Assembly (NCBI GenBank): GCA_964016885.1 | Contig: OZ024747.1 | Location: 34,038,001 to 34,102,000 of the forward strand | Source of the DNA: Eledone cirrhosa | Lineage: Eukaryota | Direction of reading: 5' to 3' | Length of the DNA stretch: 64,000 nucleotides | Shown here: positions 3,709-54,485 of the stretch, one piece after another | Numbering within the stretch: the stretch's first letter is position 1 | Layout of the letters: every line of letters begins with the position of its first letter | Notes under the pieces: generated by a model | What the model was told of the DNA's origin: nothing | The model's database searches: none | The model's input: only the letters and a program-made list of their open reading frames with translations | Made by a program: the position numbers and the translations under genes

Positions 3709-4078
3709 TATATATATATTTATATCTGTAATTTTAACCGTTGGTCAATCAATATTAAACATTGACTGCCAGATAAATTAACTATGGAAATATAAAAGAT
3801 ACAGAAGCGTAAACCAACCCAAACCAAACAGTGAGTGTGTTCTGGTATTATTTCGGGCAATATTATAAGAATATTACCCTCCCCAAGTATAACAATATAT
3901 ATATAGAATATACCTTAAACCTCTCCATCTTTTGGGTTTTTTTTGTTTCTTTCCTCTAAAAATATTTCTCTGACCAAGTTTTGATCCATCACATTTACAA
4001 TAAGACACGCATACACACACAGGCGTGCGTACGCCCGCAAACGCACGCACGCCTGTGTGTGTTTATATATACACAATA

Positions 4079-4264
4079 ATTGTTTCTACTTTAGGCACAA
4101 GGCCAGCAATTACTCAGTGCATTACTGGTACTTTATTTTATCGACCCCGTAATTATGAAAGGCAATGTAAACCTCGGCGGGATTTGAACTCAGACCGTAA
4201 ATGGACGTAACTATGCTGGAAAGCATGGCGTCCGACTCTCTACCGATACTGCCAATCCACCGCA
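4079..4264 (-). mobile_element. tRNA-derived Nin-type SINE
   Basis: Homologous to 2024-2213. Confidence 0.85.
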
Positions 4265-14457: not shown

Positions 14458-14647
14458 CAATAATAATAAATTTGAAGACTAAAATCCAAAGAGGACTCGA
14501 TAAGGATTAATATATATCAAATATATAAGAACCGTAGAGCAAATATTTATTAAAATAACACACACATATATATATATATGTTATTTTAATAAATATATAT
14601 ATATATATATTATATATATAAGTATTATATATATTATATATATATAG

Positions 14648-14702
<55 letters not shown>

Positions 14703-14828
14703 GTAGGAGGTGAGTTTTATTGTAGTACAATAAAGCAATGCAGATATCGGATAAGAAGCACTCTACAGTTTGTAGGACTGGAGTATACATAATATATAAG
14801 AACAAAAGATGGTTAAAGGAGTTCCATG

Positions 14829-14899
14829 TATTTCATTATGCGCATTTCAAAAACAAACATCATCATGCAATAATATTTGTGTTTTCATCAGATAAAACA
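14829..14899 (-). ncRNA. Type I hammerhead ribozyme
   Basis: Reverse complement of 19701-19771 with intact CTGATGA/GAAA. Confidence 0.8.
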
Positions 14900-15743
14900 G
14901 GAGGACATGATATGAAGGCTAAAAAGAACACTAGTGGATAGTGCAGTTTTAAATCAACATATGAGAAGTAGTTTTAGATTGATGTGTGATATTGGTAAAA
15001 ATATTTTATTTAGAGGGGGGAGGATGAAAAAAAGAGGAGGAGATGAGAGTGAAGGTGGAGAGGGAGGAATATAATGAGGAAGGATGAGATAGGAGGAGAG
15101 ATGGGTGATAGAGAGAGAGAGATTTTTTTTTATAACTGAGAAAGATATATTGTTTTACATAGAGAGGTTGAAAACCGTTGGAAGATAATGTATAAATTAA
15201 AAGAATTTGAAAATTAACGAAGGGAAAAATATGTGCGACGAAGGAGATGGAGTTAATATCTATTTAGAATGATGAGTTTGATGATAGACAGAATAGAATA
15301 ATGAATTGCGGATGAATATTCTAACGTCAAAAAAAGTGTGTATGTTTACAAGTATTATGGAAATTTGAAAATTAACGAAGAGAAAAAAAAAAAAATTAAG
15401 GTTTGTGTATTGAAGGATTTGAGAAAAATAATGTGAAGTTAAGGTTTGTATATTGAAGGAATTGATAATATGTGCGAAGAAAAAGTTAATATGTATTGAG
15501 AATGAGTTAGATGATAGGGAGAAAAAAATAATGAATTAAGGATGAATAATCTGGCGTCTAAACAAATGTATATGTTTACGAAGGATTTTACAAGGTGAAA
15601 ATAGAGTAAGGGTAATGAGTAAACAAGTATTATAGAGTGTATAATACCCTTTGAAATAAGGTAGGAAGATGGGTATATTTTAAAAGAGGTGTATGTATAT
15701 GTGCCTTTGAGAAAAAGATTCTACATTGATAAAGAATTGAATA

Positions 15744-17020
15744 TTAGCTGTATACTTTGTGAAATGTTTTATGGAATTTATGCAAGCAGATAGAAAACAA
15801 GTCAGTTCGTCTATTTATTATAGAATCTAGATTAGAGATAATGGTAAATTTTTCATTTAGGCAGAGATTGCAGATTTTAGATAGAGAGCTGTTCAAGTAT
15901 GGAGACGCAGAAGAAACCTTCTTCCAAAAGATGGTATATTTAATGTTTTTGTCTTTCAAGGACCATATGAGTTCTGAGAGAGCCGTGTTGGTTCTTTTAA
16001 GTTTGTATTTAAAAGATCAATGATGATTATAGAGACGAGCTTTAAAATAGGTGGAAGTGGAGCCAAAATAGGTGGAGGAATTGGTGTTAGTTATAACTTT
16101 ACATTCATAAATTAAGTTTTTATCAAGACAATGGTTGTTGAGAGGACATTTATTTTTAATAGGGCAATTGCAATTGCAATTAGAGAGATTATTAATGAGT
16201 GACCTAGTGTTTTCTATAGAAGGAATTGGATTGGAGAAGTTGTTTGCGATAGGAATAATAGTTTCTTGATTTAGAGTTGGATTATGAACATTTAGCGAAG
16301 TTGTGTTTGACGTTGTATTTGGGTTTGCAGAAATTAGCCTAGGGTTTACAATGACGCCGGGAGTACTATTACTATTATTATGAAATTCAGTGTTGGAAGG
16401 AAGAGATTTAGTATTTAGTATTTTATTGTTGTGTTTAGAGATAATGTTGGAAATATTGGAGGATGTAGAATAAGAAAATTTTATGGTGTGTTTGTTAAAT
16501 ATTTTACTATAGATATGTGAGGGAGGGAAGCATTTATTTAAGGCACTAAAGAATAATTTAGGAATATTGTTATTAATAGAGATGGATAAAGGAGCATTAT
16601 ACCAGATTATATTTTTGTATCTAGGTCTTTTATTAAAGTTATTGGAATGATCATGATTAATTATTCTACTGTAAGTTCTTCTAGAATTTATTTCTTTTCT
16701 ATATTTGATTTTATCAGGATAGCCGGCTTTAGAAAGTGCGTTATTATAGTAATTGGCGTTAGCATCACAGATGTTTTTATTAGAAGATAGGTTAGATATT
16801 CTTTTTCCAATATTACTAACTATAGCATTCTTAATATTAGTAGGATGGTTAGATTTAAAGTTAACATAATTTAGGTTCTCATTGTTTTTATGGTAAGGGT
16901 AATATAGGCCAGTGTCAAGATTAAGAGATACATCCAAGAAATTAGCTATATTGCAATTTAAGATAGTAAAGAGTCCATCGTCACGATACATTCCACCGCG
17001 AAGTTGAGGAATTTTCCGAC
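15744..17020 (-). pseudogene. Naiad-type RT C-terminus plus GIY-YIG (inverted arm)
   Basis: GGMYRDDG, NFLDV, SNHP, WYNAP, CNCNCP..CPL...C, LIYEC...YFGST, CNLC..EK. Confidence 0.88.
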
Positions 17021-18895
17021 TCAAAAGACCGAACCATTCCTCCCAAGAACACCGAGGATAAATCTCAGTGATCACAAAAACAATTTTCGCACTGAACTAC
17101 CTGTTAGATTAATCGCCCCCTCTAAATCTGATCTGGGGGTTGTTAGTAAAGCCATCTTGGATAGAATTATCCCACAGGTTCGTTCTAATTGCTCTTCTTT
17201 GAACCTAAATTCATGGTTTGGCACTTCTGAAGTGATTGGCTGGTTCAACAAATTGGATAGTAAAAACAAACTAAAATTTATTCAATTTGATATTGCCAGC
17301 TACTATTCCTCCATTTCGCCTTCACTTCTCAATAATGCACTATCTTTCGCACTTAAATATTCTGACATCACCACATATGAACTTCACATCATCCTCACCG
17401 CACGTAAAACCATCCTAGAGTTCAACAACGAATATTGGCCAGAGCCGATACCTCTAACAAATTCAACATCACAATGGGAGCATCCGATTCATCCCAATTG
17501 ACTGACTTAATTGGTATCTTTATTTTGAACTCTTTGAGTCGGAAAATTCCTCAACTTCGCGGTGGAATTTATCATGACGATGGACTCTTTACTATCTTAA
17601 ATTACAATATAGTTAACCTTAATATTATTAAGAACAATATACGTAATCTCTTTAACCAACATAACCTACAAATTGAATTTGATAACAGTATCAAACTAGC
17701 TAATTTCTTGGATGTATCTTTTAATCTTGACACTGGCCTATATTACCCTTACCATAAACACAATGAGAACCTAAATTATGTTAACTTTAAATCTAACCAT
17801 CCTACTAATATCAAGAATGCTATAGTTAGTAATATTGGAAAAAGAATATCTAACCTATCTTCTAATAAAAACATCTTTGATGCTAACGCCAATTAATATA
17901 ATAACGCACTTTCTAAAGCCGGCTATCCTGATAAAATCAAATATAGTAAAGAAACAAATTCTAGAAGAACTTACAGTAGAATAATTAATCATGATCATTC
18001 CAATAACTTTAATAAAAGACCTAGATACAAAAACATAATCTGGTATAATGCTCCTTTATCCATCTCTATTAATAACAATATTCCTAAATTATACTTTAGT
18101 GCCTTAAATAAATGCTTCCCTCCCTCACATATCTATAGTAAAATATTTAACAAACACACCATAACATTTTCTTATTCTACATCCTCCAATATTTCCAACA
18201 TTATCTCTAAACACAACAATAAAATACTAAATACTAAATCTCTTCCTTCCAACACTGAATTTCATAATAATAGTAATAGTACTCCCGACGTCATTGTAAA
18301 CCCTAGGCTAATTTATGCAAACCCAAATACAACGTCAAACACAACTTCGCTAAATGTTCATAATCTAACTCTAAATCAAGAAACTATTATTCCTATCGCA
18401 AACAACTTCTCCAATCCTTCTATAGATAACACTAGATCACTCATTAATAATCTCTCTAATTGCAATTGCAATTGCCCTATTAAAAATAAATGTCCTCTCA
18501 ACAACCATTGTCTTGATAAAAACTTAATTTATGAATGTAAAGTTATAACTAACACCAATTCCTTCACATATTTTGGCTCCACTTCCACCTCTTTTAAAGC
18601 TCGTCTCTATAATCATCATTGATCTTTTAAATACAAACTTAAAAGAACCAACACGGCTCTCTCAGAACTCATATGGTCCTTGAAAGACAAAAACATTAAA
18701 TATACCATATTTTGGAAGAAGGTTTCTTCTGCGTCTCCATACTTGAACAGCTCTCTATCTAAATTCTGCAATCTCTGCCCAAATGAAAAATTTACCATTA
18801 TCTCTAATCTAGATTCTATAATAAATAGACGAACTGACTTTATTTCTATCGGCTTGCCTAAATTCCATAAAACATTTCACAAAGTATACAGCTAA
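17020..18895 (+). pseudogene. 5'-truncated Naiad-type RT plus GIY-YIG with frameshift and stops
   Basis: LSDHKNNF..VRLIAPSKSDLG, FIQFDIASYYSSI, ITMGASDS, GIYHDDG, NFLDV. Confidence 0.9.
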
Positions 18896-19700
18896 TATTC
18901 AATTCTTTATCAATTTAGAATCTTTTTCTCAAAGGCACATATACATACACCTCTTTTAAAATATACCCATCTTCCTACCTTATTTCAAAGGGTATTATAC
19001 ACTCTATAATACTTGTTTACTCATTACCCTGACTCTATTTTCACCTTGTAAAATCCTTCGTAAACATACACATTTGTTTTGACGCCAGATTATTCATCCT
19101 AAGTTCATTATTTTTTTCTCCCTATCATCTAACTAATTCTCAATACATATTAACTTTTTCTTCGCACATATTATCAATTCCTTCAATATACAAACCTTAA
19201 TTTTTTTTTTTCTCTTCGTTAATTTTCAAATTTCCATAATACTTGTAAACCTACACACTTTTTTTGACGTTAGAATATTCATCCGCAATTCATTATTCTA
19301 TTCTGTCTATCATCAAACTCATTATTCTAAATACATATTAACTCCCTCTCCTTCGTCGCACATATTTTTCCCTTCGTTAATTTTCAAATTCTTTTAATTT
19401 ATACATTATCTTCCAACGGTTTTCAACCTCTCTATGTAAAACAATATATCTTACTCAGTTATAAAAACTATCTCTCTCTCTCTATCACCCATCTCTCCTC
19501 CTATCTCATCCTTCCTCATTATATTCCTCCCTCTCCACCTTCACTCTCATCTCCTCCTCTTTTTTTCATCCTTTCCACCACCCCCTCTAAATAAAATATT
19601 TTTCCCAATATCACACATCAATCTAAAACTACTTCTCATATGTTGATTTAAAACTGCACTATCCACAAGTGTTTTTTTTAGCCTTCATATCATGTTCTCC

Positions 19701-19771
19701 TGTTTTATCTGATGAAAACACAAATATTATTGCATGATGATGTTTGTTTTTGAAATGCGCATAATAAAATA
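19701..19771 (+). ncRNA. Type I hammerhead ribozyme
   Basis: TGTTTTAT-CTGATGA-stem II-GAAA-TGCGCA-TA|ATAAAATA: stem I closes, palindromic stem III, AUA cleavage triplet. Confidence 0.85.
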
Positions 19772-20087
19772 CATGGAACTCCTTTAACCATCTTTTGTTC
19801 TTATATATTATATATATATATATATATATAATTTAAAACAATGAAATAAAAGGTTATCACCCTTTGAAAGGAATGGTTGAAGGGTGTTAACAGTAGATTT
19901 GGCATACAAATCTATTAGGAGAAAAGGGAATGTCAAACTGATAGTTGAATGTATCTTGTATAGTGAATTTAAAAGGAATGTCAAAATAAATGGTGATTAG
20001 TGTTGTGTTGAGTTTTATGGTGAATATCAATTAAGGTTATGGCTAGGAAAGATATTATATTAAAAGATGAAAATCATAATAAGATAA

Positions 20088-20266
20088 TTGTTTCTACTAT
20101 TGGCACAAGGCCAGCAATTACCCAGTACATTACTGGTACTTTATTTTATCGACCCCGTAAGGATGAAAGGCAAAGTTAACCTCGGCGGGATTTGAACTCA
20201 GAATGGTAAGGGCCGTAACTCTATGCGACAAAGCGTCCGACCCTCTACCGCTACTGCCAATTCACC
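20088..20266 (-). mobile_element. tRNA-derived Nin-type SINE with 8-bp TSD
   Basis: AAGATAAT duplicated. Empty site is seen in the mirror arm at ~22368. Confidence 0.9.
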
Positions 20267-21629
20267 AAGATAATGAAGTACAGTAATGCGATAATATACA
20301 ACTTAACCAGCACAATATAGTGCTGTGTGGTAAATTGCAATTAGCATAATATAGCATCTGATACACTCTAAAATACTATCAAGTATGTTGATGTATAAAT
20401 AATCAAACTCAGATAAATACATGTTGGCATAAATTTCATGAAAAACCACAACAACCACACTACACGATCTATGACCAATGTTATAACCCAGAAATTTCAT
20501 GAAAAACCACAACAACCATCACTACACGATATATGACCAATGTTATAAACCCACATATGAATACCAAGCACTAAAAATCTCATAATCTACCAAAAGATAA
20601 AACCAAATATAACCACGATAATTTACCAAATTCCACAAATAAGGACACTAACAATAGGAATTATTCTAGAACACAACACAATAATATAAGTGAAAATAAG
20701 AACTTAACTAAAAACCGCAAAAGAAACATAACATGGTACAACGCACCTTTCAACCTGCAAACTATTGGACAAATCCACAACACATTCTTTGAAATTCTAC
20801 ATAAGCATTTTCCACTAAACCACGGATACCACCAAATATTTAACAAATATACAGTTAAATTCTCATACTCTACATCAAGCAATCTCAAACAAAAAATAAG
20901 CAGCTTCAACATTTATAAACTTAATAATAATAGGACTACACCATCGCAACATAATTTAAATAGGACTGCACCTTTAAAAAAGCAAATAATACAATCCTTC
21001 AACCTAGAATACACAACCACATAAATCACCAACACAAAAACAACAAAACACAAAATCGCAATACAACCCTAGCACCAAACCACCCACAAAGCAACCTTCA
21101 TTCTCCTGCTATCATTAATTACGATAGAAATAGCTCTAGAATAAATGAGAATAGTATAGGCACCCACAATAACCATCTTACGTATGGCTGTAATTGCAGA
21201 AATAGAAGCATTTGCCCCTTAAATGGAAACTGTTTGATTAATAATGTAATATATAAATGCACAGTGTCTACTACAGACTCCAACAAAACATATATAGGAT
21301 CTACATCAAACACATTTAAGAAAAGATTTTACGCACACTCTTGTAGTTTTAACAATACTAAACTAGCTGACACCACATCTTTAACTGAAGCGGTAAATAA
21401 TTATGAAAAGAAAAAAAATAGATTTCAAATTATCGTGGAACACCATTCTACAAAGAACTCCATATCTTGGGAACAGAAGGGAATGCGGATTATGTTCAGG
21501 GGAGATCTTAGAGATTACTAAATCTAAGGACGATTTATTAAATAAAAGATAGGATTGATCATAGTTTGTAATCACCGTATACGAAATACATTTAAATACT
21601 ATACACCTAATTAAATACTATAAACCTAA

Positions 21630-21885
21630 TTAAATATTCTAAATAGCAACTCACTATAATTCCATATAGGATAACATTTATTAGAACCTCATTCCCCTAA
21701 TTATATGCATTCATACTTATCTTTTGCCTTTTAATCTTTTAGCTTTCTTAGATATATACCTTAAATATTCTAAATATCAACTCACTATAATTCCATATAG
21801 GATAACATTCATTAGAACCTCTTTCCCATAATTATATGCATTCATACTTATCTTTTGCCTTTTAATGTTTTAGCTTCCTTAGATT
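21630..21885. repeat. ~125-bp tandem duplication in PLE 3' UTR
   Basis: TTAAATATTCTAAATA...GCTTTCTTAGAT occurs twice. Confidence 0.85.
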
Positions 21886-23051
21886 TATGCATTAATGACT
21901 TAAGGCAATAGGATGCACAACCACCCGTTAATTGCATGAGTAAATATATATCTATGTATGATATGGAGATATATTTATGTATGTGTATGTATGTATGTGT
22001 ATGTATGTGTATATATGTATTCATGAATGTGTATGCGTGTATATATATATATACTTAAATGATTATGTGCATGCGTGTGGATATATATTTAGATTTGCAT
22101 CTATATGTGCGTATGTATATTTTTGACTCGATATCAATTTAACTGTACCTCTCTCTATATATAGTGTGGGTATATACACCTTATAATCAATGAAATTTAT
22201 GAGTTTTAACTATGCCAACATGTATTTATCTGAGTTTGATTATTTATACATAAACACACTTGATAGTATTTTAGAGTGTATCATATGCTATATTATGCTA
22301 ATTGCAATTTACCACACAGCACTATATTGTGCTGGTTAAGTTGTATATTATCGCATTACTGTACTTCATTATCTTATTATAATTTTCATCTTTTAATATA
22401 ATATCTTTCCTAGCCATAACCTTAATTTATATTCACCATAAAATTCAACACACCACTAATCACCATTTATTTTGACATCCCTTTTAAATTCACTATACAA
22501 GATACATTCAACTATCAGTTTGACATTCCCTTTTCTCCTAATAGATTTTTATGCCAAATCTACTATTAGCACCCTTCAACCATTCCTTTCAAAGGGTCCT
22601 GACCTCAACTTTCCATCTTAACACCATAAGGAAAAAGCAATTTGATTCGTTGATTCTTCAACTGCCTCCAAATAAGGACATGATACTAACACACTACTAA
22701 TTCTGAATATAATCATTATTGAATAAAATTATTATTGCTTTTGAAAACAGCTGGTCATATGCATGTAAGTAAATATTCTCTTTATTTGATAGTTTGTAAC
22801 TAACCTTACATAGATCGATTACTGGGTATAGATACAATGTATTATCATCATCTAGAAACGATCGTAAAGCAGTGAAGTATATCTCTAATGACTTGATTTT
22901 TTATTTCATTGTTTTAACTTATATCATAACTCTGTTTTCCTTTTATTGTTTTATTGTTTTCTGAGATTTATCTTAACTTACAACATTTTCAACATATGGA
23001 TTACATCGAGTTCTTCATGCAGAATAGACCCCACAACTTACTGTGGATACC

Positions 23052-23087
<36 letters not shown>

Positions 23088-23089
<2 letters not shown>

Positions 23090-23210
23090 AAAATGTTTGA
23101 CCCCGACGGCAGAGCTCCATTTTCCTAATACCCACTCTACTACCCTAAGTATTATGTACTCTGGTGCCTTATGGTCCATCTGCTTCCTTACCACACCTCC
23201 TTCGTTTTAT
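23088..23210 (+). mobile_element. Rearranged copy of the HHR mini-element terminus
   Basis: GACCCCGACGGCAGAGCTC (inverted piece) joined to CCTAATACCCACTCTACTACCCTAAG...CCTTCGTT. Confidence 0.7.
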
Positions 23211-23217
23211 TTATATA

Positions 23218-23772
23218 TGAATGTATGTATAGTATATTTGATAATATACTGTATGTTTATTTAAACACATTTTGAAAACCATTCGCTATGAGTTTTAAAG
23301 TAGTGACTATGTCACTTACTTTTTCTCGGCAAATATAAAGAGAAGCAACCGACAGCTGTTTCTCGTTTGTTAACGGTTATCAAGATTGCTTATCCCCTCC
23401 CATCTGCCGAGACATATCGAAGCTGGATTCTTATAGAATTCCAGTTATGTTTAAGAGCTGATTAAGCAGAGCAGTTGCCGGTCCAGCAAAATTAGAAACT
23501 AGTATCAGTGCTCTGAAATAGCAATGTATGTATGAATGAATCCAGATTCGATAAGTCTCGACAGAAGCGAGGGGATAAGCAATCTTAATAACCGTTAACA
23601 AACGAGAAACAGTTGTCGTTTTCTTCCCTTTATTTTTGCCGAGACAAAGTAAGTGACATAGACACTACTTTAAAACGCATAGCGAATGGTCTTCAAAACG
23701 TTTTTAGATAAACATACAGTATATTATCAATACATACATTCATACATACATCGTTATTTCAGAGAGCTGATA

Positions 23773-23780
<8 letters not shown>
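23218..23780. repeat. Fold-back element with an HHR motif in each arm
   Basis: 23218-23430 vs 23538-23745 inverted. Minus strand 23343-23391 reads AAGCAATC-TTGATAA-stem II-GAAA-CAGCTG-TC|GGTTGCTT. Confidence 0.8.
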
Positions 23781-23848
<68 letters not shown>

Positions 23849-24043
23849 GATAAATCTACCAAAAGTTTACGGTAGTGTCCAATCCGTATGAAGAACTCAA
23901 TGTAATCCGGATATCATGAAAAGAGAAGATGCATTCAAAAACTACTTTCGGTGAAAAATAAACGGAAAACAAAGTCAAGATAAATTATTAAAAAAATAAT
24001 GAATAAACAAAGAAACAGTTCCTTATATTAAACAAAAAAAATT

Positions 24044-24184
24044 CATTATTTTACGATCGTTTCTAGGATATATATGTGTGTTAGAATTGGTATGCATATT
24101 CTATAGATCTATGTACAATATTTATACAAACTATCAGAGGGAATATACATACCTTCACATATATATGCTGTCTTCAGAAATAAT
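24044..24184 (-). ncRNA. Type I hammerhead ribozyme with ~105-nt stem II
   Basis: ATTATTT-CTGAAGA-CAGCATATATATGTG...CACATATATATCCTA-GAAA-CGATCG-TA|AAATAATG. Confidence 0.8.
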
Positions 24185-24374
24185 TGTTTCTACTTTAGGC
24201 ACAAGGCCAGCAATTAACCAGTGCATTACTGGTACTTTATTTTATCGACCCCGTAAGGATGAAAGGCAAAGTCAACCTCGGCGGGATTCGAACTCAGATC
24301 ATAAAGGGACGCAACTATGCTGGAAAGCATGGCGTCAAATCCTTTACCGATACTGCCAATCCAGGCCGTATCAG
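24185..24374 (-). mobile_element. tRNA-derived Nin-type SINE with 18-bp TSD
   Basis: GCTGTCTTCAGAAATAAT at 24167-24184 and 24375-24392. Confidence 0.9.
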
Positions 24375-24573
24375 GCTGTCTTCAGAAATAATGATACTTG
24401 TTTATTGATAAGAACAAAGATTCAATACAATAGGTCTGTTTGGGAACAGGTTTTGAATTGACCAATCAGGAGATAGTGAGGGTCAAGATAGTGATATAGC
24501 ATTAGGAGAACCTTAAATTATGGGTAGGGGAAGTAGATTTCAGTTTTGGATGGAAAAGAGTATTATTAATGAA

Positions 24574-24755
24574 GGATTACTTTAGGGAAGAAGTAGGTCA
24601 TATGCTGACCTCAGAAATAATTTTATTTGTTCATTGAATAAAACCAACAAAGATCCAATATAATAATGGATTACGTTAGGGAAGAAGTAGGTCATATGTT
24701 GACCTCAGAGATAATTTTATTTGTTCATTGAATAAAACCAACAAAGATCAAATAT
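24574..24755. repeat. ~90-bp tandem duplication
   Basis: GGATTAC.TTAGGGAAGAAGTAGGTCATATG...ACCAACAAAGATC occurs twice. Confidence 0.85.
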
Positions 24756-25010
24756 ATTCTGTCTGTTTGGTAAGAGGTTTAGAATTAACCAATAGAAAGT
24801 TAATATTTGGCCAAATGGTAAAATAGTAGTAATTGAAATTTATTTTAGGGGTGTAATTAGGTCAGGTGGTCAGTAGAAGGTATACAAGCAGTTGCTGTTA
24901 TAAAATAGTGATGCCAATACAAATAACTAGGGTGACCAGAGTTTAAGATAAGAATGTTAGTGAAAAAAATACATCTATGAAAAGGATATAAAATTAATTT
25001 AATTGATGGG

Positions 25011-25077
<67 letters not shown>

Positions 25078-25238
25078 ATAAAATTATACTAATACATATA
25101 GATGTGATAAATAAGAGTTAGAAGCAGTTGAAAAGTGCTGTTAAGGATGAGGGGAAATTAAAAGGATATAAAAATAATATATATATATATATACATATAT
25201 ATACCTACATATATATACACATACATACACACGCGCAT

Positions 25239-25299
<61 letters not shown>

Positions 25300-25442
25300 C
25301 ATACACATACACACACAAACATATACCCATACATACATATATATATATATATATACGCATATACATATGTACACATACATACACACACACAGACATATAT
25401 ATATATATATATATATATACACACTCACACACATATATACAC

Positions 25443-25499
<57 letters not shown>

Positions 25500-25679
25500 T
25501 ATGTATTTTTACACTCACATACATACACACATACATATATACACACTTATATACACACACATCCGCACTTACATATACGTATAATTATTGGGGGGGGGGG
25601 GGATTACATTTATTAGTGGGAAATAGTAAATATATATAGGTTTCAAGGAACATAGAGTCATAACCTGAAGTTAAATCAC

Positions 25680-26180
25680 TTAAAGGTATCAGTTTTAGGA
25701 AATGATATTTGTAAGAAGGAAAGCCAAATTATGTAGTTCATCATTAGTAGAATATTAATTATAGGTTAACTAAAATAAAAAAGTTTATATATTAATTTCT
25801 AAGGTGTATAATAATTAGGTTTATAATATTTGAAGCGGAATTATGTAGTTCATCAGTAGTAGAATATTAATTATAGCTTAACTAAATTAAACATAATTAC
25901 ATATGTTTACTTAATGGTATCATTTTTAGGAAATGATATTTGGATGAAGGAAAGCCAAATTATGTAGTTCATCAGTAGTAGAATATTAATTATAGGTTAA
26001 CTAAATTAAAAAAAGTTTATATATTAATTTCTAAAGTGTATATTAATTAGGTTTATAATATTTAAAGCAGAAATTTGTAATTCATCTGTAGTAGAATATT
26101 AATTATAGGTTAACTAAATTAAAATTAATTTATATATTAATTTCTAAAGTGTATATTAATTAGGTTTATAATATTTAATT
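25680..26180. repeat. Degenerate tandem repeats (~115-120-bp units) overlapping the PLE stop codon
   Basis: Repeated GTAGTTCATCAGTAGTAGAATATTAATTATAGGTTAACTAAA...TAGGTTTATAATATTT. Confidence 0.8.
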
Positions 26181-28099
26181 GTTTTTCTCAGTTTATGATT
26201 ACACGATATTATTAATTCTTGTCGCTTATTTAATAGGATATCCTTAGATTTCATTATTTCGAAAAGTTCTTGGGAACACAATCTACATTCATTTCTACTA
26301 TTTTGATAAGGGGTGGCTCTTTTGAGCACACTCCAGTTCAGATCATATTCTATATTCCTCTTTCTATAACTATTAATTTTTTCAGCTAGAGATGTTGTAT
26401 TAGCTAGTGCGGCATTTTTAAAACTATGTTTGTGGGTATTAAATCTTACCTTAAAATTGTTAGAGGTAGCTCCTATATATGAACAAATAGAGTCCTTAGT
26501 GTTAACTTTACATTTATATATTATGTTATTAACAAGGCAATTTCCTTTTAATGGACAGTTTGCCTTGTTTCTACAGTTACAACTTTTCGTGAATCCTGTA
26601 TTTGAGGAGATATTATGGCTAGTGTGATGTACTGGTGGTATACTTATGGTTTTTTTACATTTATATGCATTATAGGCACTTATATTTTGTTTTATGTTTT
26701 TGGTTGTTGAGTAGGAGAATTTAACTGTTGATCTATTTAAGATTTGATGGTGTTTGTGGTTTGGCGGGAAGTTTTTCTCTAGGATATTAAAGAATGTTTT
26801 AGGTATATTATCCTTAACTTGTAAATTAAATGGAGCATTATACCAAGTAACTCGTCTATTACGGTTTCTATGTTGTTTATTGTTTTTATAGGATGCATCC
26901 TGATGTTTACTAGGAGAATTATTGTTAATGACCTCTCCACACACATTTTTAGTTAGATTTATTGATTTAGGTGTTTTAGCTTGTTTATTAGGAGTTTTAT
27001 TATTAACATTTATTAGAGTTGTAGGATGAGTAGTTTTTTGAGAGTTACTATACTGTATATTAGAGGGGTTAGATAAATTTGGTTTTATGTTGGTATTTTG
27101 GGGTATAGTGTGAGTGGCATTTAGGTGTGTACGTTTCATTTGGTGTTTGTTGGTAATATTAGGTTGTATGTTTGTAGTGTTATTGGTAGAAGGTATATAT
27201 TCTAATCTATTTTTGTGGCCACTTCTAGCTAGAGCTTCGTTATAAAAGGTCGCATTTTTATCAAATACATCTTGGTTAGACGAAAGGTTAGAAATTCTAA
27301 GTGATATATTATATGCAAGGTTTTTAAGGATAGATTTAGGGTGATTAGATTGTGAGTGTATGTAGTGTAAATTTGGGTTGGGTTTATGGTAAGGTTGGTA
27401 GATACCCGTAGATAAGTCTAATGTTATATCTAGGAAATTAACTACTTTACTTGTGTTTTCAAATGTAATATCTAGACTATAATAGTCTTTAAGGAAAGTT
27501 CTAATAAGCTTTTTATTTTTTTCTATCTCTGAGAGGCTAAGGTTATTGGACAGAAGAAGACAGTCGTCACGATATAAACCACCTTTAAGGTGGGGAAAGG
27601 AAGCATTTATGTTAAAAAGAAGAAAGAGGCCCACAAGATCAGTAATTTGGGCAGAATCGCTTGAGCCCATAGTAATATCAAATAGATTACTATATGTGTT
27701 TCTGGTCCAGTATTCATTCTGAAATTCCAGTAGTGTTAGTCTAGCATGTGTAATAATATTAATGTCATCCAAAGTTAAGTTAGATCTATTTTTAGCAAAT
27801 ATCAAGGCTTTGTTCAGGAGTATAGGTGATATAGAAGAATAGTAATTATCTATATCAAATTGTAGAAATGAAGCAGAGGATTTATATCTAATATTATTAA
27901 ACCAGTTAATTACCTGGGATGTGTTTTCCCAGAGTGGTAAATTAACATGTTTTCTTATTTGTGGGATGACTCTATCTAAAATTTTTTTACTAATTATTCC
28001 AATATCAGATTTGGAAGGGCATATAAGTCTTATAGAAGGATTAGAGTTAAAGTTTGATTTATGATCTTTCAGGTTGAAGTGTGGTCTTTTCAATGCCAA
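26156..28099 (-). CDS. Naiad-type Penelope-like polyprotein, open for 647 aa (RT, Asn/Thr-rich linker, CxC..CPLxxxC, GIY-YIG, CxxC..CxH); N-terminus frameshifted/truncated
   Basis: NLKDHK, IRLICPSKSDIG, FLQFDIDNYYSSI, ITMGSSDSAQITDLVG, GLYRDD, NFLDI, SNHP, WYNAPF, IIYKC..SYIGAT, CRLC..E, LLNKRQE..SCNH. Confidence 0.9.
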   Translation of the reverse strand: MALKRPHFNLKDHKSNFNSNPSIRLICPSKSDIGIISKKILDRVIPQIRKHVNLPLWENTSQVINWFNNIRYKSSASFLQFDIDNYYSSISPILLNKALIFAKNRSNLTLDDINIITHARLTLLEFQNEYWTRNTYSNLFDITMGSSDSAQITDLVGLFLLFNINASFPHLKGGLYRDDCLLLSNNLSLSEIEKNKKLIRTFLKDYYSLDITFENTSKVVNFLDITLDLSTGIYQPYHKPNPNLHYIHSQSNHPKSILKNLAYNISLRISNLSSNQDVFDKNATFYNEALARSGHKNRLEYIPSTNNTTNIQPNITNKHQMKRTHLNATHTIPQNTNIKPNLSNPSNIQYSNSQKTTHPTTLINVNNKTPNKQAKTPKSINLTKNVCGEVINNNSPSKHQDASYKNNKQHRNRNRRVTWYNAPFNLQVKDNIPKTFFNILEKNFPPNHKHHQILNRSTVKFSYSTTKNIKQNISAYNAYKCKKTISIPPVHHTSHNISSNTGFTKSCNCRNKANCPLKGNCLVNNIIYKCKVNTKDSICSYIGATSNNFKVRFNTHKHSFKNAALANTTSLAEKINSYRKRNIEYDLNWSVLKRATPYQNSRNECRLCSQELFEIMKSKDILLNKRQELIISCNHKLRKTIKYYKPN

Positions 28100-28804: not shown

Positions 28805-28956
28805 ATATTTATTAAAATAACAGATTAAAGTTTAAGCAAAGAATCGCTGCTTTCACCGTTAACAGCATCTTCTGAAACTCTGAGTTTCAGAATATCCCGT
28901 TAAGGGTGAAAGCAGCGATTCTTTGCTTAAACTTTAATCTGTTATTTTAATAAATA
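28805..28956. repeat. ~150-bp hairpin, degenerate HHR-like arms
   Basis: TATTTATTAAAATAACAG...TTCTGAAACTC-T-GAGTTTCAGAA...CTGTTATTTTAATAAATA. Related pieces at 14470-14560 and 51720-51790. Confidence 0.8.
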
Positions 28957-28969
28957 TATATATATATAT

Positions 28970-31533: not shown

Positions 31534-31677
31534 ATAGTAGAAAGGAAAACGATTCTTTGAGTAGAAAATGTTGAAGAGACTCTTTTTCAGAGAGATATTA
31601 AAACATTAATTTATTTACCATACCGGTTTCAGATTGTTAAGTTGCAGATTTGTACAAATAGTGATAATAGTAATAAT

Positions 31678-31826
31678 AATTGTTTCTACTTTTAGTACAA
31701 GGTCAGCAATTATCCCAGTGTATTACTGGTACTTTATTTTATCGAACCCGTAAAGATGAAAGGCAAAGTTAACCTCGGTGGGATTTGATCTCAGACCATA
31801 AAGGGCCGTAACTCTTTGCTGCAAAG
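31678..31826 (-). mobile_element. Partial tRNA-derived Nin-type SINE
   Basis: Homology to 2024-2213. Confidence 0.8.
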
Positions 31827-33438: not shown

Positions 33439-33618
33439 CGAAGGAAGTGTGGTAAGGAACCAGATGAACCATAACGCACCAGAGTACTCAATACTTAGGG
33501 TGGGTAATAGGAAAGTGTTCAAGACCCCGACGGCAGAGCTCAAGCCGTTTCGACGGCTATTTCTGGACTGAAATAACTGTAGAAACGGCTTGAGTTCTGT
33601 CGTCAGGGTCTTGAACAT
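33437..33618 (-). mobile_element. Palindromic HHR mini-element
   Basis: Palindrome 33515-33618 centred at ~33566; tail ends at AACGAAGG next to (TA)n. Confidence 0.8.
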
Positions 33619-34342: not shown

Positions 34343-34517
34343 TACTCGTTCCTATTACCCACTCTACTACCCTAAGTATTGAGTACGTTATGGTCTATCT
34401 GGTTCCTTACCACATTTCGTTCGTTATCTAGTTCCTATTCCCGTAGTAGAGCACTTTCCGACCCTACCACGCCGTATCCAGACTCTTCCGCTAAGCTCAA
34501 GTTCTTTCACCCGCACC

Positions 34518-36649
34518 ATGCGAAAACACAACATCGACTTCTCCACCAAGAACATCCCGGTTCCACCGAAAAAACTTTACCTTCGGGTGCTCACGCAAAA
34601 AAATCGACCTATTTGCGAAAAGACTTAGATGGAGAACTTTTTCTACGACAGATATTGCGACAATCAGGACTTCGGTACCAAGGAGAGATTCGGATTTAAT
34701 ACCTACAAATCTCCCCCTCCGAACCCTATGCTCTCACCCTTCGAGAATGACCTTTTCCAACTGGTCAAGAATATTAAATTCAAACCCAGACACAACAGAT
34801 TCCTACAAAAACTCCGTAGCAACTTAACAGAGTATGATAACACCAATGACATCATGGTGCACTCGGATAAAACTGGTAAGCTCTACTTCGTCAATCCCGA
34901 CAGATACCACACACTGATCAGGAGCAGCCTAAACTCCACCTATAAAAAGACTAACCACTGATGCATCGAGGATAAAATCGAGATGGACAACAAATTACCT
35001 CCAGCCTCGGGGTCGCCGACCGCACGGAACCCCTAGATCCACGGACACCCTACTTCACACTGAAGGACCACAAATCCGATTTCGACTGTAAACCTTCTGT
35101 CAGGCTTATAAACCCAACGAAATCCGACATAGGGAGAATCAGTAAAAAAATCCTAAACCGCGTTATATCAAAAGTTAAGCAAAACGCCAGACTTAGCCTA
35201 TGGGTCAACACGCAGGAAGTAATCTCATGGTTCAGCAATATGGAGGACAAACGAGACACACAATTCATCCAGTTTGACATAGAGAGTTACTATGCTTCAA
35301 TTACCTTACCGCTCCTTACGGCTGCCTTGGACTTTGCCGAGACACTTGCGCCCATTACTGACCAGGAAAGAAATATCATCCTCCACGCCAGGAAGACAGT
35401 CCAACTTTTCGACAACTCCAAATGGATAAAGAGAGCTCCCGACGCACCCTTCGACGTCAGCATGGGCGCAACGGATTCGGCTGAGGTCACAGATCTTATA
35501 GGATTATTCCTACTAGTTAAACTCACCGATATGTTTCCTGCATTCGTTGGTGGATTGTACCGTGATGATGGGCTCCTTACCTTTAAAGGGTACAACCCCA
35601 GTAGTACAGACCGGGTCCCTAAACAATTAATCAGCTTCTTTCACGACTGGGGATTTAAAATAACCCTACAAACGTCCCTGACACGAGTAAACTTCCTGGA
35701 CGTTACACTTGATCTCGATAATGACCTGTACTACCCATACAGGAAACCCAACGACAACCTGCACTACATCCACCGCCGGTCAAACCATCCTAGGAACATC
35801 ACCAATAACCTGGTTAAAAACATCTCCCTCCGCATATCTCGTTTGTCCGCTAATGAGCAGATATTCGAGGAACATGCGCCTTATTACAACCAGGCCCTCA
35901 AGCGGAGTGGCTTTCGGGAGGAAATATCCTACTGTCCAGTTCCATTAGCAGAACCAGCAGGCGACACTGCCCCTCACGCAATGTAACATGGTTCAATCCT
36001 CGCCACAACGCCGAGGTGAGAACACCTATCGAGAAAATCTTCTTTAGGCTCATCGAAAAACACTTCCCACTACAACACCGCTAACACAACATAATCAACA
36101 AAAATACCATCAAACTCTCCTACAGCACCACACCTAACTTTGCACAAAGCGTCGTCTCCTCTAACAACAAAAAAATCAACCCTATGGAAGAAATAACCTA
36201 AATAACAGCGGAGAGCCGACCAGGAGGTGATGGATCCATTTTCCCCCTCGACAACAGATGCAGAGATTGTAATGTGATCTACCAGTGCAACGTGAGGACG
36301 GACACCTCCAACAAGCTTATATAGGATTAACCGCATGTGACTTCAAGACCCGGCTATACCAACACAGACTTACTTTCCGAAACACGGCCCGGCGTCAAGC
36401 CAACACACTTTCGGGCCACATCGGGACCTCAAAGATAACAATATTACCTATGATCTCACTTGGAGCTTACTATCCAGAGCCAACTCTTACACGGGAGGAC
36501 GCCATCCGTGCAATTTATGCTCGGAGGAAACTTTACAAATGCTGTTTTCGACAGACCAACTCCTAAACAAGAAAGACGAACTGGTAACTGCATGCAAACA
36601 CATATTGCGTAGGACTTACCTCGCCCTCAAACCCCATAATGTCTCGGGG
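34518..36649 (+). pseudogene. Complete-length Naiad-type ORF with several frameshifts and stops
   Basis: MRKHNIDFSTKNIPVPP..RLRWR.FF, SDKTGKLY, TLKDHK, FIQFDIESYY, VSMGATDSAE, GLYRDDG, NFLDV, VTWFNP, YIGLT, CNLC, LNKKDEL..CKH. Confidence 0.9.
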
Positions 36650-38312
36650 TGGGGGTAGACAAGGGCTGTAACACCCCACTTGCCGACTTTGTAATGGGTA
36701 ACCCCTGCTTGCAATGGTAGACGTAAGATTTTCTATTATATCTTTTTATCGTTTCCGCTATATTTCCTTCTTCACCCCATCCCTGCCTAGTCCTTCCACC
36801 CCAGTTCTCCTTCTTTGTCGTCGTCCTTTTCACTTTCTCGCCCACCCCGAGGCAGCCCTTCGGTCCTTTGTAGCCTCCAACCGCCACCCCCATCCCCTAT
36901 TCTATGATAGAATTGGCCGACTCCGCTTTTTATAGCAGATGTGATAGACCCCAGATACTTGCTTTCTTATCCGATGGCTGCCCCATTTCCGTGCTTTCTA
37001 CTTTTCCTATTGGTATCTCTGCTTTAGTTTCTCGTATAACAGTATTTATTTATTTTTGGGGTGGTGGTGGTGGTGGGGTAGCGGGTGGGGGATTCTGAAT
37101 TAATTTTCCGTATCAAACTTTTCATTTATATCGTACGAGCATTTATGTAGTTTGTATTATAATTTTTATATCGTAGCGGCACCCTTATATATAGTATTAG
37201 TATTCTTTTTCGGGATTCTGAATTATTATTTCGTATTAGTTTCGGAATTCTGAATTATTATTTCGTAGTAGTTTCTTTAGTACTTTGGCCCCCTACTTGT
37301 TGACCTGTCACTGTAAGATAGATTTGGTTGATTACTACTAACTCATAAAATTCTTTCACTACAAATTCCGTCCCACCTAGTAAACTTTTCTATAGTTTAG
37401 CAGTACCAGTGAGAGACTTGATGATTGTGGTAAGGGAATAGTAACCAGAAATTGTTTTTTTTATATTTTTAACATTCTTATCATTCTTCTATATATTTAC
37501 TCCATATTGATTTACTTATTGTTTCGACTTCCTCCCCCTCTCCCTCCCTAGTATACTTTCTTGACCTCCTGCCCTTAGGATCCTGCTGTAGTTGGCACTA
37601 TCAACGCACGACTGGGTTTCATCCACTCCCTCTTTCTTCTACTGGCAGGTTCAGCTACCCCTTCCTTCCACAAATTGCAATGATAGAATTATGTGTCTCA
37701 ACAACAAACTTTTGACCAATCCCTGTGACAATCATTTTTACCATATATGGAATTATCCACTGAGAAGCTCGGCTGTTCATGTACCAGGATAAAAATGTTC
37801 ATTTAGTCCAGAATTAGCCGTCGAAACGGCTGAAGCTCAGCCGTCGGGGTCCTACTCGTTCCTATATATATATAGAATATATCTATCTATATATATATAT
37901 ACATGCATACACACAATCATACATATATACACACGTACATACACACACATACATACAAACATATATATACGCATACATACGCATGCACAAATATAGATAC
38001 ATGTACACACACCTACATACGCACACACAAATAATAAAAAAATATAATAATAAAAATACCGTCACATAAGAATAAAAAATAAATGTAAAAATTATTATAA
38101 AGTTGACAGCGATACAGGCAACAGATAAATGAACAAACACACGTGGTGAGCAATACACACAATTGCACATGCATATATATATATAAATATATATATATAT
38201 ACATATATATATATACATACATATACACAAACACATACAAATACATACACACACATATGTATGTGTGTGAAACTCATTCTTAGATGTATTCATATGAACC
38301 TTGTTTAACTCT

Positions 38313-38736: not shown

Positions 38737-38845
38737 CAAATCGCGCCGAGGTTAACTTTGCCTTTCATCCTTACGGGGTCGATAAAATAAAGTACCGGTA
38801 ATACACTGGGCAATTGCTGGCCTTGTGCCAAAAGTAGAAACAATT
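38737..38845 (+). mobile_element. 5'-truncated tRNA-derived SINE
   Basis: GCCGAGGTTAACTTTGCCTTTCATCCTTACGGGGTCGATAAAATAAAGTACC...GTAGAAACAATT. Confidence 0.85.
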
Positions 38846-38918
38846 ATATATATACACAAATAAAAAAATTATATAAAAATACACACAAATAAATATACAC
38901 ACGCACACACACACACAT

Positions 38919-38944
<26 letters not shown>

Positions 38945-38951
<7 letters not shown>

Positions 38952-39314
38952 AGATCAAAAGATGGTTAAAGGAGTTCCATATATTTTATTATGCGCATTT
39001 CAAAAACAAACATCATCAAGCAATAATATTTGTGTTTTCATCAGATAAAACAGGAGAACATGATATGAAGGCTAAAAAACACTTGTTGATAGTGCAGTTT
39101 TAAATCAACATGTTGATTTAAAACTGCACCATGAAAACACAAATATTATTGCTTGATGATGTTTGTTTTTGAAATGCGCATAATAAAATATATGGAACTC
39201 CTTTAACCATCTTTTGATCTTATATTATGCATACTCCAGTCCCACAAACTGTAGAGTGCTTCTTATCCGATATCTGCATTGCTTTATTGTACTACAATAA
39301 AACTCACCTCCTAC

Positions 39315-39316
<2 letters not shown>
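38945..39316. mobile_element. Fold-back mini-element of the 14700-19806 Naiad family with intact HHR on the minus arm (38982-39052)
   Basis: Pivot AAATCAAC-AT-GTTGATTT (~39110). Right arm lacks the HHR core start but carries the family 3' end (…CCTCCTACAT). Confidence 0.85.
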
Positions 39317-43265: not shown

Positions 43266-46200
43266 TTAGTAATGTTCCATATATTGGTATTTTACTATGG
43301 TGCCCTGGGTATATCAATTGTCTGCCATAGTCGAGCAGTATTCTTCTGTCGAGGCTGCATTGTGTGAGATCTGCCTATGGGTAACAAGATGGCCGCCAAT
43401 AGACATATTTACCTTACTAATTAGAGGGTGGTTTCAGGGGAGGTAACTCCTCGAGAGATTAGAAATTGTGGGTAGTTTATAGTTAAGTGCTAATTTTTTA
43501 ATTGAGAGACAATGTAAGAGAAGTAACTTATGATTATCTAAGTTAGTTATTACTATTTAACTTATTAGCTACAAGTAAAAATGGGGCAAGATGACTATGT
43601 TAGGTAAAATATTCTGTTGGCGGAGGAAATAGCCCTTCGATGTTGACAGCTAATAGTTACCTCCGTTCTATCGTTAATCGGTAGAGGTCGTGATAGAGTT
43701 ATCTAATATGCTTCGGTAAGACAGAGATCACAACATTTTCTTCGTCCATTGAACGGTTGGTCCCTAGCCAAGATATCCCATGTTAGTGAGTGTTCAATGT
43801 TGGTTAATTTAAGGTTTTTAATGAACCTAGCTAGAGATGTCGAACATCCTTTGCTAGGGTCTCGGAAGGAAAAAGTGTGCGCGTTATAGCATACCTTAAA
43901 AGGGTTAGAGGTAGACCCGATATAGGAGCTGGTATACGAAGCAGTTTTAACCGTGCACCTATAGACTATGTTGTGTGTCAGGCAATGTCGATTTAGAAGG
44001 CATGCATTAGGGTAACGGCAGTTGCAGTGACTTCTGCGGTTAGTGAGAGTTTTGTTGTTTAATCTAAGCGGTTGGTCAGTGCTAGAAGAATTAGATGCGG
44101 GAGGTGTGCTACTAGTGTAAGTATTGGTGTAGTGGCGTGGTGTATTTAATGGGGCTGGTGGTACCGCGGTGTGGGACCTATACTGTCTTAGTTTATGATG
44201 GTTACTGAATGAGATGTGGCTAGCTAGCTTAGGTGTTGTGGAGAATGAGATTTTAATGTTATTTTTATTAAAGAATTTGTAATATCTATGGTTGGGGGGG
44301 GGTGCTTAGATAGGATAAAGAAGAAGCGTTTACGGATATTAGTGGCTAGATTAGATGATTATGTAGGGTTAAGCCAGGCGATATTTCTAGGCCTATTCCT
44401 TCTAGGGTTTCTAGTGGAGTTGGTAGGGGCCTTCATAGGATTATTATTACCTTGGCATTTGTCATCACATTGCTCATTCCTATTCTAGGGTTGATTCTTA
44501 GTTTGCTACTTGGAGTGGATAGCAGGCCACTGCCATCATTATGGTTCCCTGTATAAGTGCTGTTACTGCTAAAATTCCGGCGAATCTGGCTATATGCTAA
44601 GGTATTTTTAGTTCTAGTGTTAAGTTTATTATGGCTGTGGGGAATTGCTGTGTTATGACATTTAGGTATGTAGTAAATGGACTGTTCATAACCAGATCAG
44701 AAAGAGCCTTATTATAATATGCTGCATGGTTTATAAATATCTCCTCATTTGCTGATAGCATGGAGATCCTATACGAGATAGATTTGATTACTGCTCTCAT
44801 GACTGCCGGTGGTTGGTTAGAGTGTCGGCTAATATATGTAAGTATTTCCCCTTGGTTTATGGTAAGGGTAATATAGGTTATTGTTAAGACCCAAGGTAAC
44901 GTCTAGGAAGTTTACTACTTTCTGGTTCGGCTCGATGGTGATAGAGAGACCGTTATTTTTAAAGAATCTATGTAATTGTTTTTTGAGCAAGTCAATGCCT
45001 ACAAATATCACCTGGCTTAACCCCCCCCCCCATGCAATTGTGGACTGCAAATAGGGCGTCGTGCCTGTATATTCCGCCTTGCAAGTGTTGGATTTCGGCT
45101 CTGATGTTATATAATAGGTAAATTCCAACTAAATCGGTGATTTGTGCAGAGTTACTTGAGCCCATCGTGATATCAAAGTTGTCTGTTCTGTCTTTTCTAT
45201 TCCATAGTGCTCCGTTGAATTCAATGATGGTCTGCCTAGACATTGACAGCTATTACGCTTCAATAATCCCGGAACTGCTCAACAAAGCATTAACCCTAGC
45301 CAGCACCAAATCTGACATAACCAATAATGATATTGTCATCATACTTATGGCTAGGCAGACCATCATTGTATTCAACGGAGCACTCTGGACTAGAAAAGAC
45401 AGAACAGACAACTTTGACATCACGATGGGCTCAAGTGACTCTGCGCAAATCACCGATTTGGTTTGAATTTTCCTATTAAATGACATCAGAGCCGAAACCC
45501 AACCCTTGCAAGGCAGAATATACAGGGACGACGCCCTATTTGCAGTCCACAATTGCACTAATCGAGGCATTGACTTACTCAAAAAACAATTTCATAGATT
45601 CTTTAAAAATAGCGGTCTCTCTATCACCATCAAGCCGAACCATAAAGTAGTAAACTTCCTAGACGTTACCCTGGATCTTAACAATAACCTATATTACCCT
45701 TACCATAAACCAGGCGAAATACTTACATATATTAGCCCACACTCTAACCACCCTCCGGCAGTCATCAGAGCAGTAATCAAATCTACCTCGTATAAGATCT
45801 CCATGCTATCAGCCAATGAGGAGATATTTATAAACTCTCTGAATCTGGTTATGAACAGTCCATTTACTACATACCTAAATGTCATAACACAGCAATTCCC
45901 CACAGCCATAATAAACTTAACACTAGAACTAGAAAAACCTTAGCATATAGCCAGATTCGCCGGAATTTTAGCAGTAACAGCACTTATACAGGGAACCTTA
46001 ATGGTGGCAGTGGACTGCTTCCCACTCCAAGTAGCAAACTAAAAATCAACCCTAGAACAGGAATGAGCAATGGGATGACAAATAACAAATGCCCAGGTAA
46101 TAATAACCCTATGAAGGCCCCTACCAACGCCACTAGAACACCTAGAAGGAATAGGCCTACAAATATCACCTGACTTAACCCCCCCGCCCATTCTCATCTA

Positions 46201-48007: not shown

Positions 48008-48149
48008 CTGAGGGTTGGTGAACTAAATTACTACCACTACATGAATTGAATAATCGAAACCTTAGCGGTATGGCCCTATCCAATCTTTCATATATTTTAT
48101 CTGATCAAAATGTACTGTTACACCATTATACCTTCGAAATATATATAAT

Positions 48150-48330
48150 AATTGTTTCTTCTTTTAGCACAAGGCCAGCAATTACCCAGTGCATTACTGG
48201 TACTTTATATTATCGACCCCGTAAAGGATAAACGGCAAAGTTAACCTCGGCAGTATTTGAACTCAGATCAGAAAGAGGTCTATATTCTGTGCTGCAAAGT
48301 CTGTTGTCCGACCCTCTACCGATACTGCCG
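48150..48330 (-). mobile_element. tRNA-derived Nin-type SINE
   Basis: Homology to 2024-2213. Confidence 0.8.
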
Positions 48331-51085: not shown

Positions 51086-51268
51086 TAATTGTTTCTACCT
51101 TTGGCTAGGCAATTATACCAGTGCATTACTCGTGCTTTATTTTATCGACCCTGTAAGGATGAAAGGCAAAGTGAACCTCGGCGGGATTTGAACTCAGTTC
51201 GTAAAGGGACGTAACTGTGCTGCAAACATGGCGTCTGACCCTCTACCGATACTGCCAATCCACCACCC
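51086..51268 (-). mobile_element. tRNA-derived Nin-type SINE
   Basis: Homology to 2024-2213. Confidence 0.85.
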
Positions 51269-51689
51269 TAATAACACAAAACAATCTCTAATACTCTAAA
51301 ATTTGTCATACAATTACACGATAATCTATCCAATATTAATACGTGGCTTGAATAGGGAGCACATTTTAAGTTTCTGTCAACATAAGACTTCAATGCAGTT
51401 TCAATTTCAAGCTGAAACTACTTCATTTTATTTTTCTCTCATTCTCATTTCTTGTAGTATGACATGCAAAATGGTTAGAGAAACAGATCAAGATTGTGAA
51501 CTTGACTAAGGAGTTATTTGTAGTATTATGAATTGACTCCAGGCCATTAGAAAATATCTGAAGCGGCAATCCCGAACAGCGTGCAGCAATGTCTGGTCAG
51601 GGTCCCCACAGTCGCACGCTGGGCTTTCTTATATTTTCTAGCCGATTTGACGTGTATTAACCATTCAATGATATTTTGGCTTAATTTTA

Positions 51690-54479: not shown

Positions 54480-54485
<6 letters not shown>
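54302..54485 (-). mobile_element. Palindromic HHR mini-element
   Basis: Palindrome 54370-54485 centred at ~54427; (TA)n on both sides. Confidence 0.85.

Follow-up and report, generated by a model that had tools for sequence, protein, structure and literature searches.

Positions 34,038,001 to 34,102,000 of the forward strand of Eledone cirrhosa contig OZ024747.1 (assembly GCA_964016885.1), a stretch of 64,000 nucleotides (nt) referred to below as the window and numbered from 1, contain a palindrome of two head-to-head, 5'-truncated copies of a Hydra-clade Penelope-like element (PLE) between (TA)n target arrays. The left array occupies 14566-14700 (AT-array listing) and the right array 19810-19830 (sequence and AT-array listing), both unstranded, and (TA)n on both sides hides the target-site duplication (TSD) of this copy. 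The minus-strand arm (14701-17025) ends outward at the tail end of the element (..CCTACAT|TA), an end designated L, and has an 87-nt internal deletion between direct repeats close to the junction. The plus-strand arm (17023-19811) is frameshifted, contains stops, and extends to an internal TA-rich site 88 nt further in, designated S, where its last bases are TTCTTATATATTAT (19809-19811), continuing into (TA)n. The 88 nt between these two family-wide ends form the tail (14701-14788, minus strand), which is present on the minus arm only; opposite arms at other loci stop at the same boundary. A preliminary description of the locus had given this one-sided piece as about 100 nt; it had the side right, but 14789-14799 is TA-like sequence common to both arms and hence lies outside the unique tail.

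When aligned in inverted orientation, the two arms cover 2190 columns with 49 mismatches (18 transitions, 31 transversions) and indels of 87, 6, 45, 1 and 7 nt, the 87-nt deletion being restricted to the minus arm. The inverted arms with both ends in (TA)n, the roughly 510 extra 5' bases of the plus arm (17023-17532) and the stop of that arm at an internal site were all recovered as first described. The arm differences are rich in transversions (31/49), and the divergence of 2.2% compares with less than 1% in most other palindromes of the family and may reflect older age, local mutation or assembly error. The extra bases include a spacer of about 510 nt of reverse transcriptase (RT) coding sequence, in sense and found on the S arm only (17026-17532, plus strand), which is followed on the same strand by the RT core (Y[H/R]DD), thumb, linker and C-terminal GIY-YIG endonuclease without CCHH (17533-18895). 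Within this region, the CxCX5C linker motif lies at about 18461-18493 and the stop codon after the endonuclease at 18893-18895. Further along the plus strand are the family hot stop for arm ends, TCA+1TATG (unit position 3597), placed at 19638 by inference from other copies and with its mirror position on the minus arm at about 14962, and a type I hammerhead-like motif read by eye (19702-19770; CTGATGA, stem II, GAAA and a palindromic TGCGCA) with a predicted cut after 19763.

The head-to-head junction consists of a 3-nt microhomology, AAA (17023-17025), as defined by five relatives and by loose contig ends. A longer CTCAAA microhomology had been proposed, but upstream of the plus arm the five relatives read ATTGAAAAAAA|GACC, so that CTC belongs to the minus arm only. 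None of the public contigs on 16780-17500 spans the junction, an uninformative result, and loose contig ends also break at 17023 and 17025. Assembly fold-back is disfavored because the arms show 2.2% mostly private divergence and family-typical ends, and on this evidence the palindrome is real. A mini-copy of the same family at 38938-39316 has its S arm on the left (minus strand), its L arm, with an internal deletion of about 50 nt, on the right (plus strand), and the hot stop at its center; one of its arms stops at the same internal site as the focal plus arm, as had been noted before.

The element had initially been labeled Naiad. Naiad elements share with it their PLE nature, a preference for (TA)n and inverted insertions with a tail, but they require an N-terminal endonuclease, which carries CCHH, and have no canonical hammerhead. 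In the window the coding order is the opposite, RT followed by GIY-YIG, as it is in an open 800-amino-acid frame of a relative, and the label therefore fails. This frame, one open reading frame (ORF) with C-terminal GIY-YIG as in Hydra elements, carries RLRWT and SDKTNNLY (RWT rather than RWK, and DKT in place of DKG), both of which lie 5' of the region kept in the truncated arms of the window. The CxCX5C linker reads CNCRIKNKC in the relative and CNCPIKNKC in the window, the relative's endonuclease has CxxC and CxH flanking E and N (CNLC..E..N..CLH), and its CCHH motif is missing, as IYECKVITSTNSFTYFG lacks the two cysteines between GIY and YIG. Insertion into (TA)n is seen at both focal flanks and at nearly all listed ends of the family. 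The Hydra clade, in the accessible text of PMC8557442, has the same C-terminal GIY-YIG, RW[T], DKT, CxCX5C, and CxxC and CxH around E and N, likewise lacks CCHH, targets (TA)n and carries a hammerhead-like motif; by eye, the relative's protein resembles Hydra-1_Amil and Hydra-1_Obim motif by motif in the alignment shown there. We therefore assign the element to the Hydra clade, by domain order and motif likeness. Its unit of 3.85 kb compares with generally less than 3 kb for Hydra, and its 88-nt tail with the 30-40 bp given for PLEs, in the same accessible text.

A Pfam search with the 800-amino-acid relative returned no RT or GIY-YIG match, and an Rfam search of 14500-20000 returned no match, including for the hammerhead-like motif (19702-19770), whose minimum-energy fold lacks the three-way junction. 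The predicted cut corresponds to unit position 3720. In a palindrome at another locus (L074, 1433-1620), both arms end within 1 nt of this position, suggesting that ribozyme-cut RNA may sometimes serve as template, and arm ends a few bases away occur in L092, L120, L145, L130 and L029. Tandem copies have a unit of 3854 nt, in which the tail end passes directly into the ORF region. Exact 23-mers matched the 3.0-Gb genome 9064 times for the tail and 9023 times for the pre-tail sequence, which puts the family at more than 9,000 copies.

To count the end types across this family, four sets of loci were sampled. Set A (60 regions from the first 100 matches of the 23-mer preceding the internal end) and set C (37 regions drawn from the 41 places that match the RT spacer) are tail-unbiased, while set B (43 regions) and set D are tail-anchored; L001, L004 and L015 (the window itself and two tandem-junction matches) were dropped from set D. 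The automatic tally for sets A and C gave 70 L+S among 73 typed two-armed insertions. One apparent SS case (L089) was recoded, as its L arm is split by a later insertion; L104 was dropped as a segmental duplicate of L101 with shared flanks; L092, L116, L117 and L118 were resolved manually as L+S; and L070, L086, L098, L115 and the complex L102 remained untyped. After these corrections, 74 of 76 insertions pair one L end with one S end, with one LL and one SS (P=4e-20 against free choice), or 74 of 77 when the gapped composite L040 is included. Set B contains 32 L+S and 3 LL, and set D 21 L+S; at least three SS pairs occur among the first 100 S-end matches, two of which were fetched and confirmed. 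The LL, LS and SS mini-palindrome figures are sampled counts and not genome-wide ones.

This pairing bears directly on how the target is used. It had been proposed that the two 3' ends of a broken (TA)n array are equivalent primers; priming from both ends with a microhomology join fits the family data, but with 74 of 76 insertions L+S the two target ends are not used equivalently. Among the one-armed copies of set A, eight end at S and one is truly L-ended, and S is therefore a priming site itself. A fold-back origin of the inverted arms would predict many SS palindromes, which are rare (1/76). The side of the spacer was scored in 127 L+S insertions: 54 have the S arm extending further 5', 31 have the L arm doing so, and in 42 the two agree within 10 nt. 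The arm bearing the spacer thus does not always carry the full 3' end, since in 54 of 85 unequal cases it is the tail-less one. In 46 of the 54 S-further insertions the S arm has no second tail to copy from, and the remaining eight are tandems in which the S arm carries a tail in its upstream pseudo-long terminal repeat (pLTR). Snap-back of an L-primed complementary DNA (cDNA) predicts no S-further cases at all, and the earlier argument that simple snap-back could not build the focal copy holds, given its longer, tail-less S arm. Finally, in nine of the 127 insertions (L044 and L047, for example) an L arm of 39-97 nt has little or no sequence in common with an S arm of 76-3788 nt, which is the layout of twin priming.

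Whether the arms of an insertion share a source was scored as discordance at sites polymorphic in at least three other loci; a few loci mix neighboring insertions, which raises the observed rate. Over 85 loci, 55 of 2693 comparisons between arms of the same locus are discordant (2.0%), whereas the weighted control median for other loci is 14%; in 16 long overlaps the corresponding figures are 12 of 1125 and 20%. The focal arms agree against the majority at 97 columns, of which 85-87 are common to three close relatives and three to none, and 36 of their 49 differences have one allele found in no other sampled segment. By these comparisons, the two arms were copied from a single RNA or from two RNAs that one locus produced, and the test proposed earlier for different source copies gave a negative result. 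Gene conversion was considered for the agreement and is not supported, as private arm differences persist: each of the 16 long overlaps has 0-5 variants that its arms share and that are unique to the locus, and 0-35 differences between the arms (2 and 33, respectively, for the focal copy), with L083 as the exception. In the LL-like L040, 9 of 29 sites are discordant and 2.2 kb of unrelated sequence separates the arms, so this locus looks like two insertions. In 17 tandem loci, too few clean sites were available to trace the inverted arm to one of the two pLTRs, upstream or downstream. One locus, L071 (888-9537), is an 8.6-kb palindrome in which each arm is a whole unit plus upstream pLTR, with distinct upstream and downstream pLTR variants mirrored on both arms.

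A further line of evidence comes from the hot stop, where both arms stop in 29 of 122 L+S insertions and one arm in 24 more. Junctions at this position vary among a 4-nt overlap, a 2-nt overlap, blunt joins and short fillers, and they must therefore form anew each time. In L078, L170, L174, L181 and L187 the fillers are short templated repeats of the cDNA end, resembling repeated slip-and-extend cycles in end joining. The templated base preceding the hot stop is C in all 155 continuing arms, but G is found in 21 of the 45 arms that end there without direct overlap; genome-wide, G outnumbers A at this position by 2111 to 570. Reverse transcription of a cap is known from LINE-1 to leave an extra G, and the hot stop, with its untemplated G, is likely the 5' end of a capped RNA. 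Part of the G excess is partner-templated, but clear cases remain: L046, L190 and L171-L174 (the latter four having been chosen for it) have the G on both arms, and L084, L179, L184 and L187 have it on S arms with an early-stopping or absent L partner. The G implies that the S arms were themselves copied from RNA. Of 22 upstream pLTRs in tandem copies, none starts at the hot stop, which is thus not supported as the start of full-length templates; mini-copies ending there likely derive from short pLTR transcripts.

Taken together, these observations lead us to regard it as probable, with some room for doubt, that the head-to-head insertions of this Hydra element arise from two converging target-primed reactions, one starting at L on one target end and the other at S on the other. 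In such a scheme, the endonuclease would cut both strands of the (TA)n target, and an asymmetric, probably dimeric, ribonucleoprotein would assign one target end to each RNA start site, so that synthesis from one target 3' end begins at L and from the other at S, 88 nt further in. The two cDNAs would then converge, stopping independently or running off the capped RNA 5' end, after which their 3' ends would anneal (through AAA in the focal copy) and host repair would fill in the rest. Both polymerases may use one RNA, with the leading cDNA displaced, or two RNAs of the same source locus, and we lean very slightly toward the former. Self-complementarity of (TA)n, invoked earlier, is unnecessary, as the same layout is reported in the accessible text of PMC3846280 for Pen2a_Av, whose target was another element and not a (TA)n array.

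Several observations weigh against two converging reactions. All of the evidence comes from finished insertions, and no intermediate was seen. Arm lengths correlate (Spearman 0.75; set A, 34 cases), as they would after a hairpin with a central deletion, and the S-further bias (P=0.017) comes partly from the tail offset, raw length being greater for L than for S in 57 of 93 cases. The 42 equal and 31 L-further insertions are compatible with snap-back. In about half of the 21 G cases the partner arm may have served as template, which inflates the genome-wide ratio too, and the absence of upstream pLTRs starting at the hot stop (0/22) counts on the same side. Very short arms occur on both sides (at most 100 nt in 11 L and 8 S arms), which falls short of proving that one polymerase blocks the other when they share an RNA; L arms piling up at the S site were rejected as proof of collision, since S arms are short equally often. 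In the in vitro assay of the Anolis carolinensis Poseidon PLE, both strands showed the same start-site use, and the accessible text of PMC11167929 does not show strict pairing.

Of the alternatives, the one that survives best is that an L-primed cDNA folds back into a hairpin resolved at the internal TA-rich site, with a central deletion following later. This sequence of events accounts for a single source, the L+S pairing and junction microhomology, as well as for the spacer on either side and the correlated arm lengths. It would, however, need near-total one-sided loss of kilobases in the nine cases with L arms of 39-97 nt, and deletions that start exactly at the hot stop yet spare the G in L084, L179, L184 and L187. 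It also conflicts with the one-armed S-ended copies, which mark S as a priming site, and the G on both arms plus non-palindromic filler in L172-L174 fits two run-off cDNAs better; we consider it unlikely. Less probable still are equivalent (TA)n primers used by independent reactions on separate RNAs, with free choice of site and source. Priming at both ends fits, and rare LL (L082, L128, L129) and SS (L057, L175, L176) insertions do exist, but free choice is at odds with 74 of 76 insertions being L+S and with arms that match each other far better than they match other loci, and the sole strongly discordant LL-like case, L040, looks like two insertions.

We give very little weight to self-priming or snap-back, in which an antisense template, or cDNA folded at a junction palindrome, yields the inverted arm. 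Self-priming was proposed in PMC3846280 (accessible text), many centers are native micro-palindromes (the CATATG hot stop; L100, L116 and L074), and the eight tandem cases do have a tail in the upstream pLTR of the S arm. Snap-back nevertheless cannot yield an S arm longer than L without a second tail, as in the focal copy and 46 others; the hairpin loop of L116 is oriented as its short L arm and not as the long S cDNA, the strand that folding would require, and the 87-nt focal deletion is on the minus arm only. For the focal copy, snap-back is refuted. Equally improbable is an origin in two unrelated adjacent insertions, in the copying of a whole pre-existing palindrome or in assembly fold-back: L040 shows that side-by-side events occur and no public contig spans the junction (uninformatively), but the focal arms share subfamily variants, three of them in no other sampled copy, join directly without TA between them and carry 2.2% private divergence, and repeated junction positions are confined to the hot stop and a near-palindrome close by. 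Whole-palindrome copying was rejected for the family, as junctions are mostly unique and the L101/L104 pair is a segmental duplicate with shared flanks.

Other elements in the window show related layouts. Mini-palindromes of a second family at 1181-1297, 33516-33617 and 54370-54484 have a one-sided tail of about 80 nt lying between two TA-ending sites, and a relative of this family with a Hydra-type RT lies at 34376-37865. Two further families (56038-61347, which contains Hydra-type RT and endonuclease pieces, and 28805-28957) have a long and a short end in (TA)n and tails of about 85-95 nt. Older palindromes or fragments with Hydra-type CxCX5C and GIY-YIG frames occupy 43269-47291, 19851-22605, which adjoins the focal right (TA)n, and 20700-26900. 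A repeat of about 190 nt resembling a short interspersed element (SINE) is found at 1495-1693, 2020-2214, 4075-4263, 20084-20266, 24176-24363, 31674-31826, 38737-38854, 48146-48332 and 51082-51269, and a member of it splits the L arm of L089 at the TA-rich S site with a duplication of about 12 nt. At L060, L094, L103 and L110, long open frames of other non-LTR retrotransposons lie beside (TA)n arrays and copies of the family.

In the accessible text of PMC8557442, a standard PLE insertion has an inverted 5'-truncated copy at its 5' end and a one-sided tail of 30-40 bp, and the focal copy fits this pattern except that its tail is longer. Pen2a_Av is built alike, its TSD measuring 9 bp and its tail 31 bp (PMC3846280, accessible text, where self-priming on an antisense template is favored for the inverted copy). 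Insertions of endonuclease-bearing (EN+) PLEs in these two sources comprise the same partial tandems, head-to-head inverted copies and one-sided tails; the tail is ascribed there to endonuclease resolution and the inversion to self-priming, and neither accessible text counts how the ends pair, which arm carries the spacer or where the arms come from. In vitro, Anolis carolinensis Poseidon cut and extended both target strands, with two adjacent RNA start sites separated by the tail and a predicted dimer (PMC11167929, accessible text). That text leaves the later steps open, without proposing one site per end or converging cDNAs, and the Poseidon start sites are not homologous to the target, whereas both sites here are TA-like.

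PLEs are the closest mobile relatives of telomerase. The accessible text of PMC8557442 lists the way in which their inverted repeats and one-sided tails arise among the open questions, and that of PMC11167929 leaves the steps after first priming unvalidated. Counts from a family of more than 9,000 copies exclude simple snap-back and yield predictions for the in vitro system, namely one start site per end, one source per insertion and cap-copied ends on both strands. If two converging reactions are indeed at work, they would constitute a route of retrotransposition that differs from the second-strand synthesis of LINE and R2 elements, and would steadily supply animal genomes with large palindromes. 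A broader proposal is that two-ended priming is obligatory throughout PLEs, with a dimer, a single capped RNA, two fixed sites, strand-displacement double copying and a head-to-head join; we hold this tentatively, as somewhat more doubtful than likely, and if true, one reaction would directly yield the tail, the inverted pLTR and the mini-palindromes alike across the group.

We found no paper stating a convergent model with one site per end, although an earlier statement is possible in the older PLE literature. The insertion shape and the clade are already known, and the family counts provide strong genomic evidence, open to testing, for a step of integration that has yet to be established. 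The nearest parallel is LINE-1 twin priming, reportedly described by Ostertag and Kazazian in 2001, in which both target ends are said to prime on one transcript and to be joined through microhomology, the second primer annealing at variable upstream sites and the arms being non-overlapping. In the family studied here, by comparison, the position of the second site does not vary and overlap between the arms is usual, giving a palindrome; the LINE-1 layout is matched by the 9 of 127 non-overlapping insertions and not by the focal copy.

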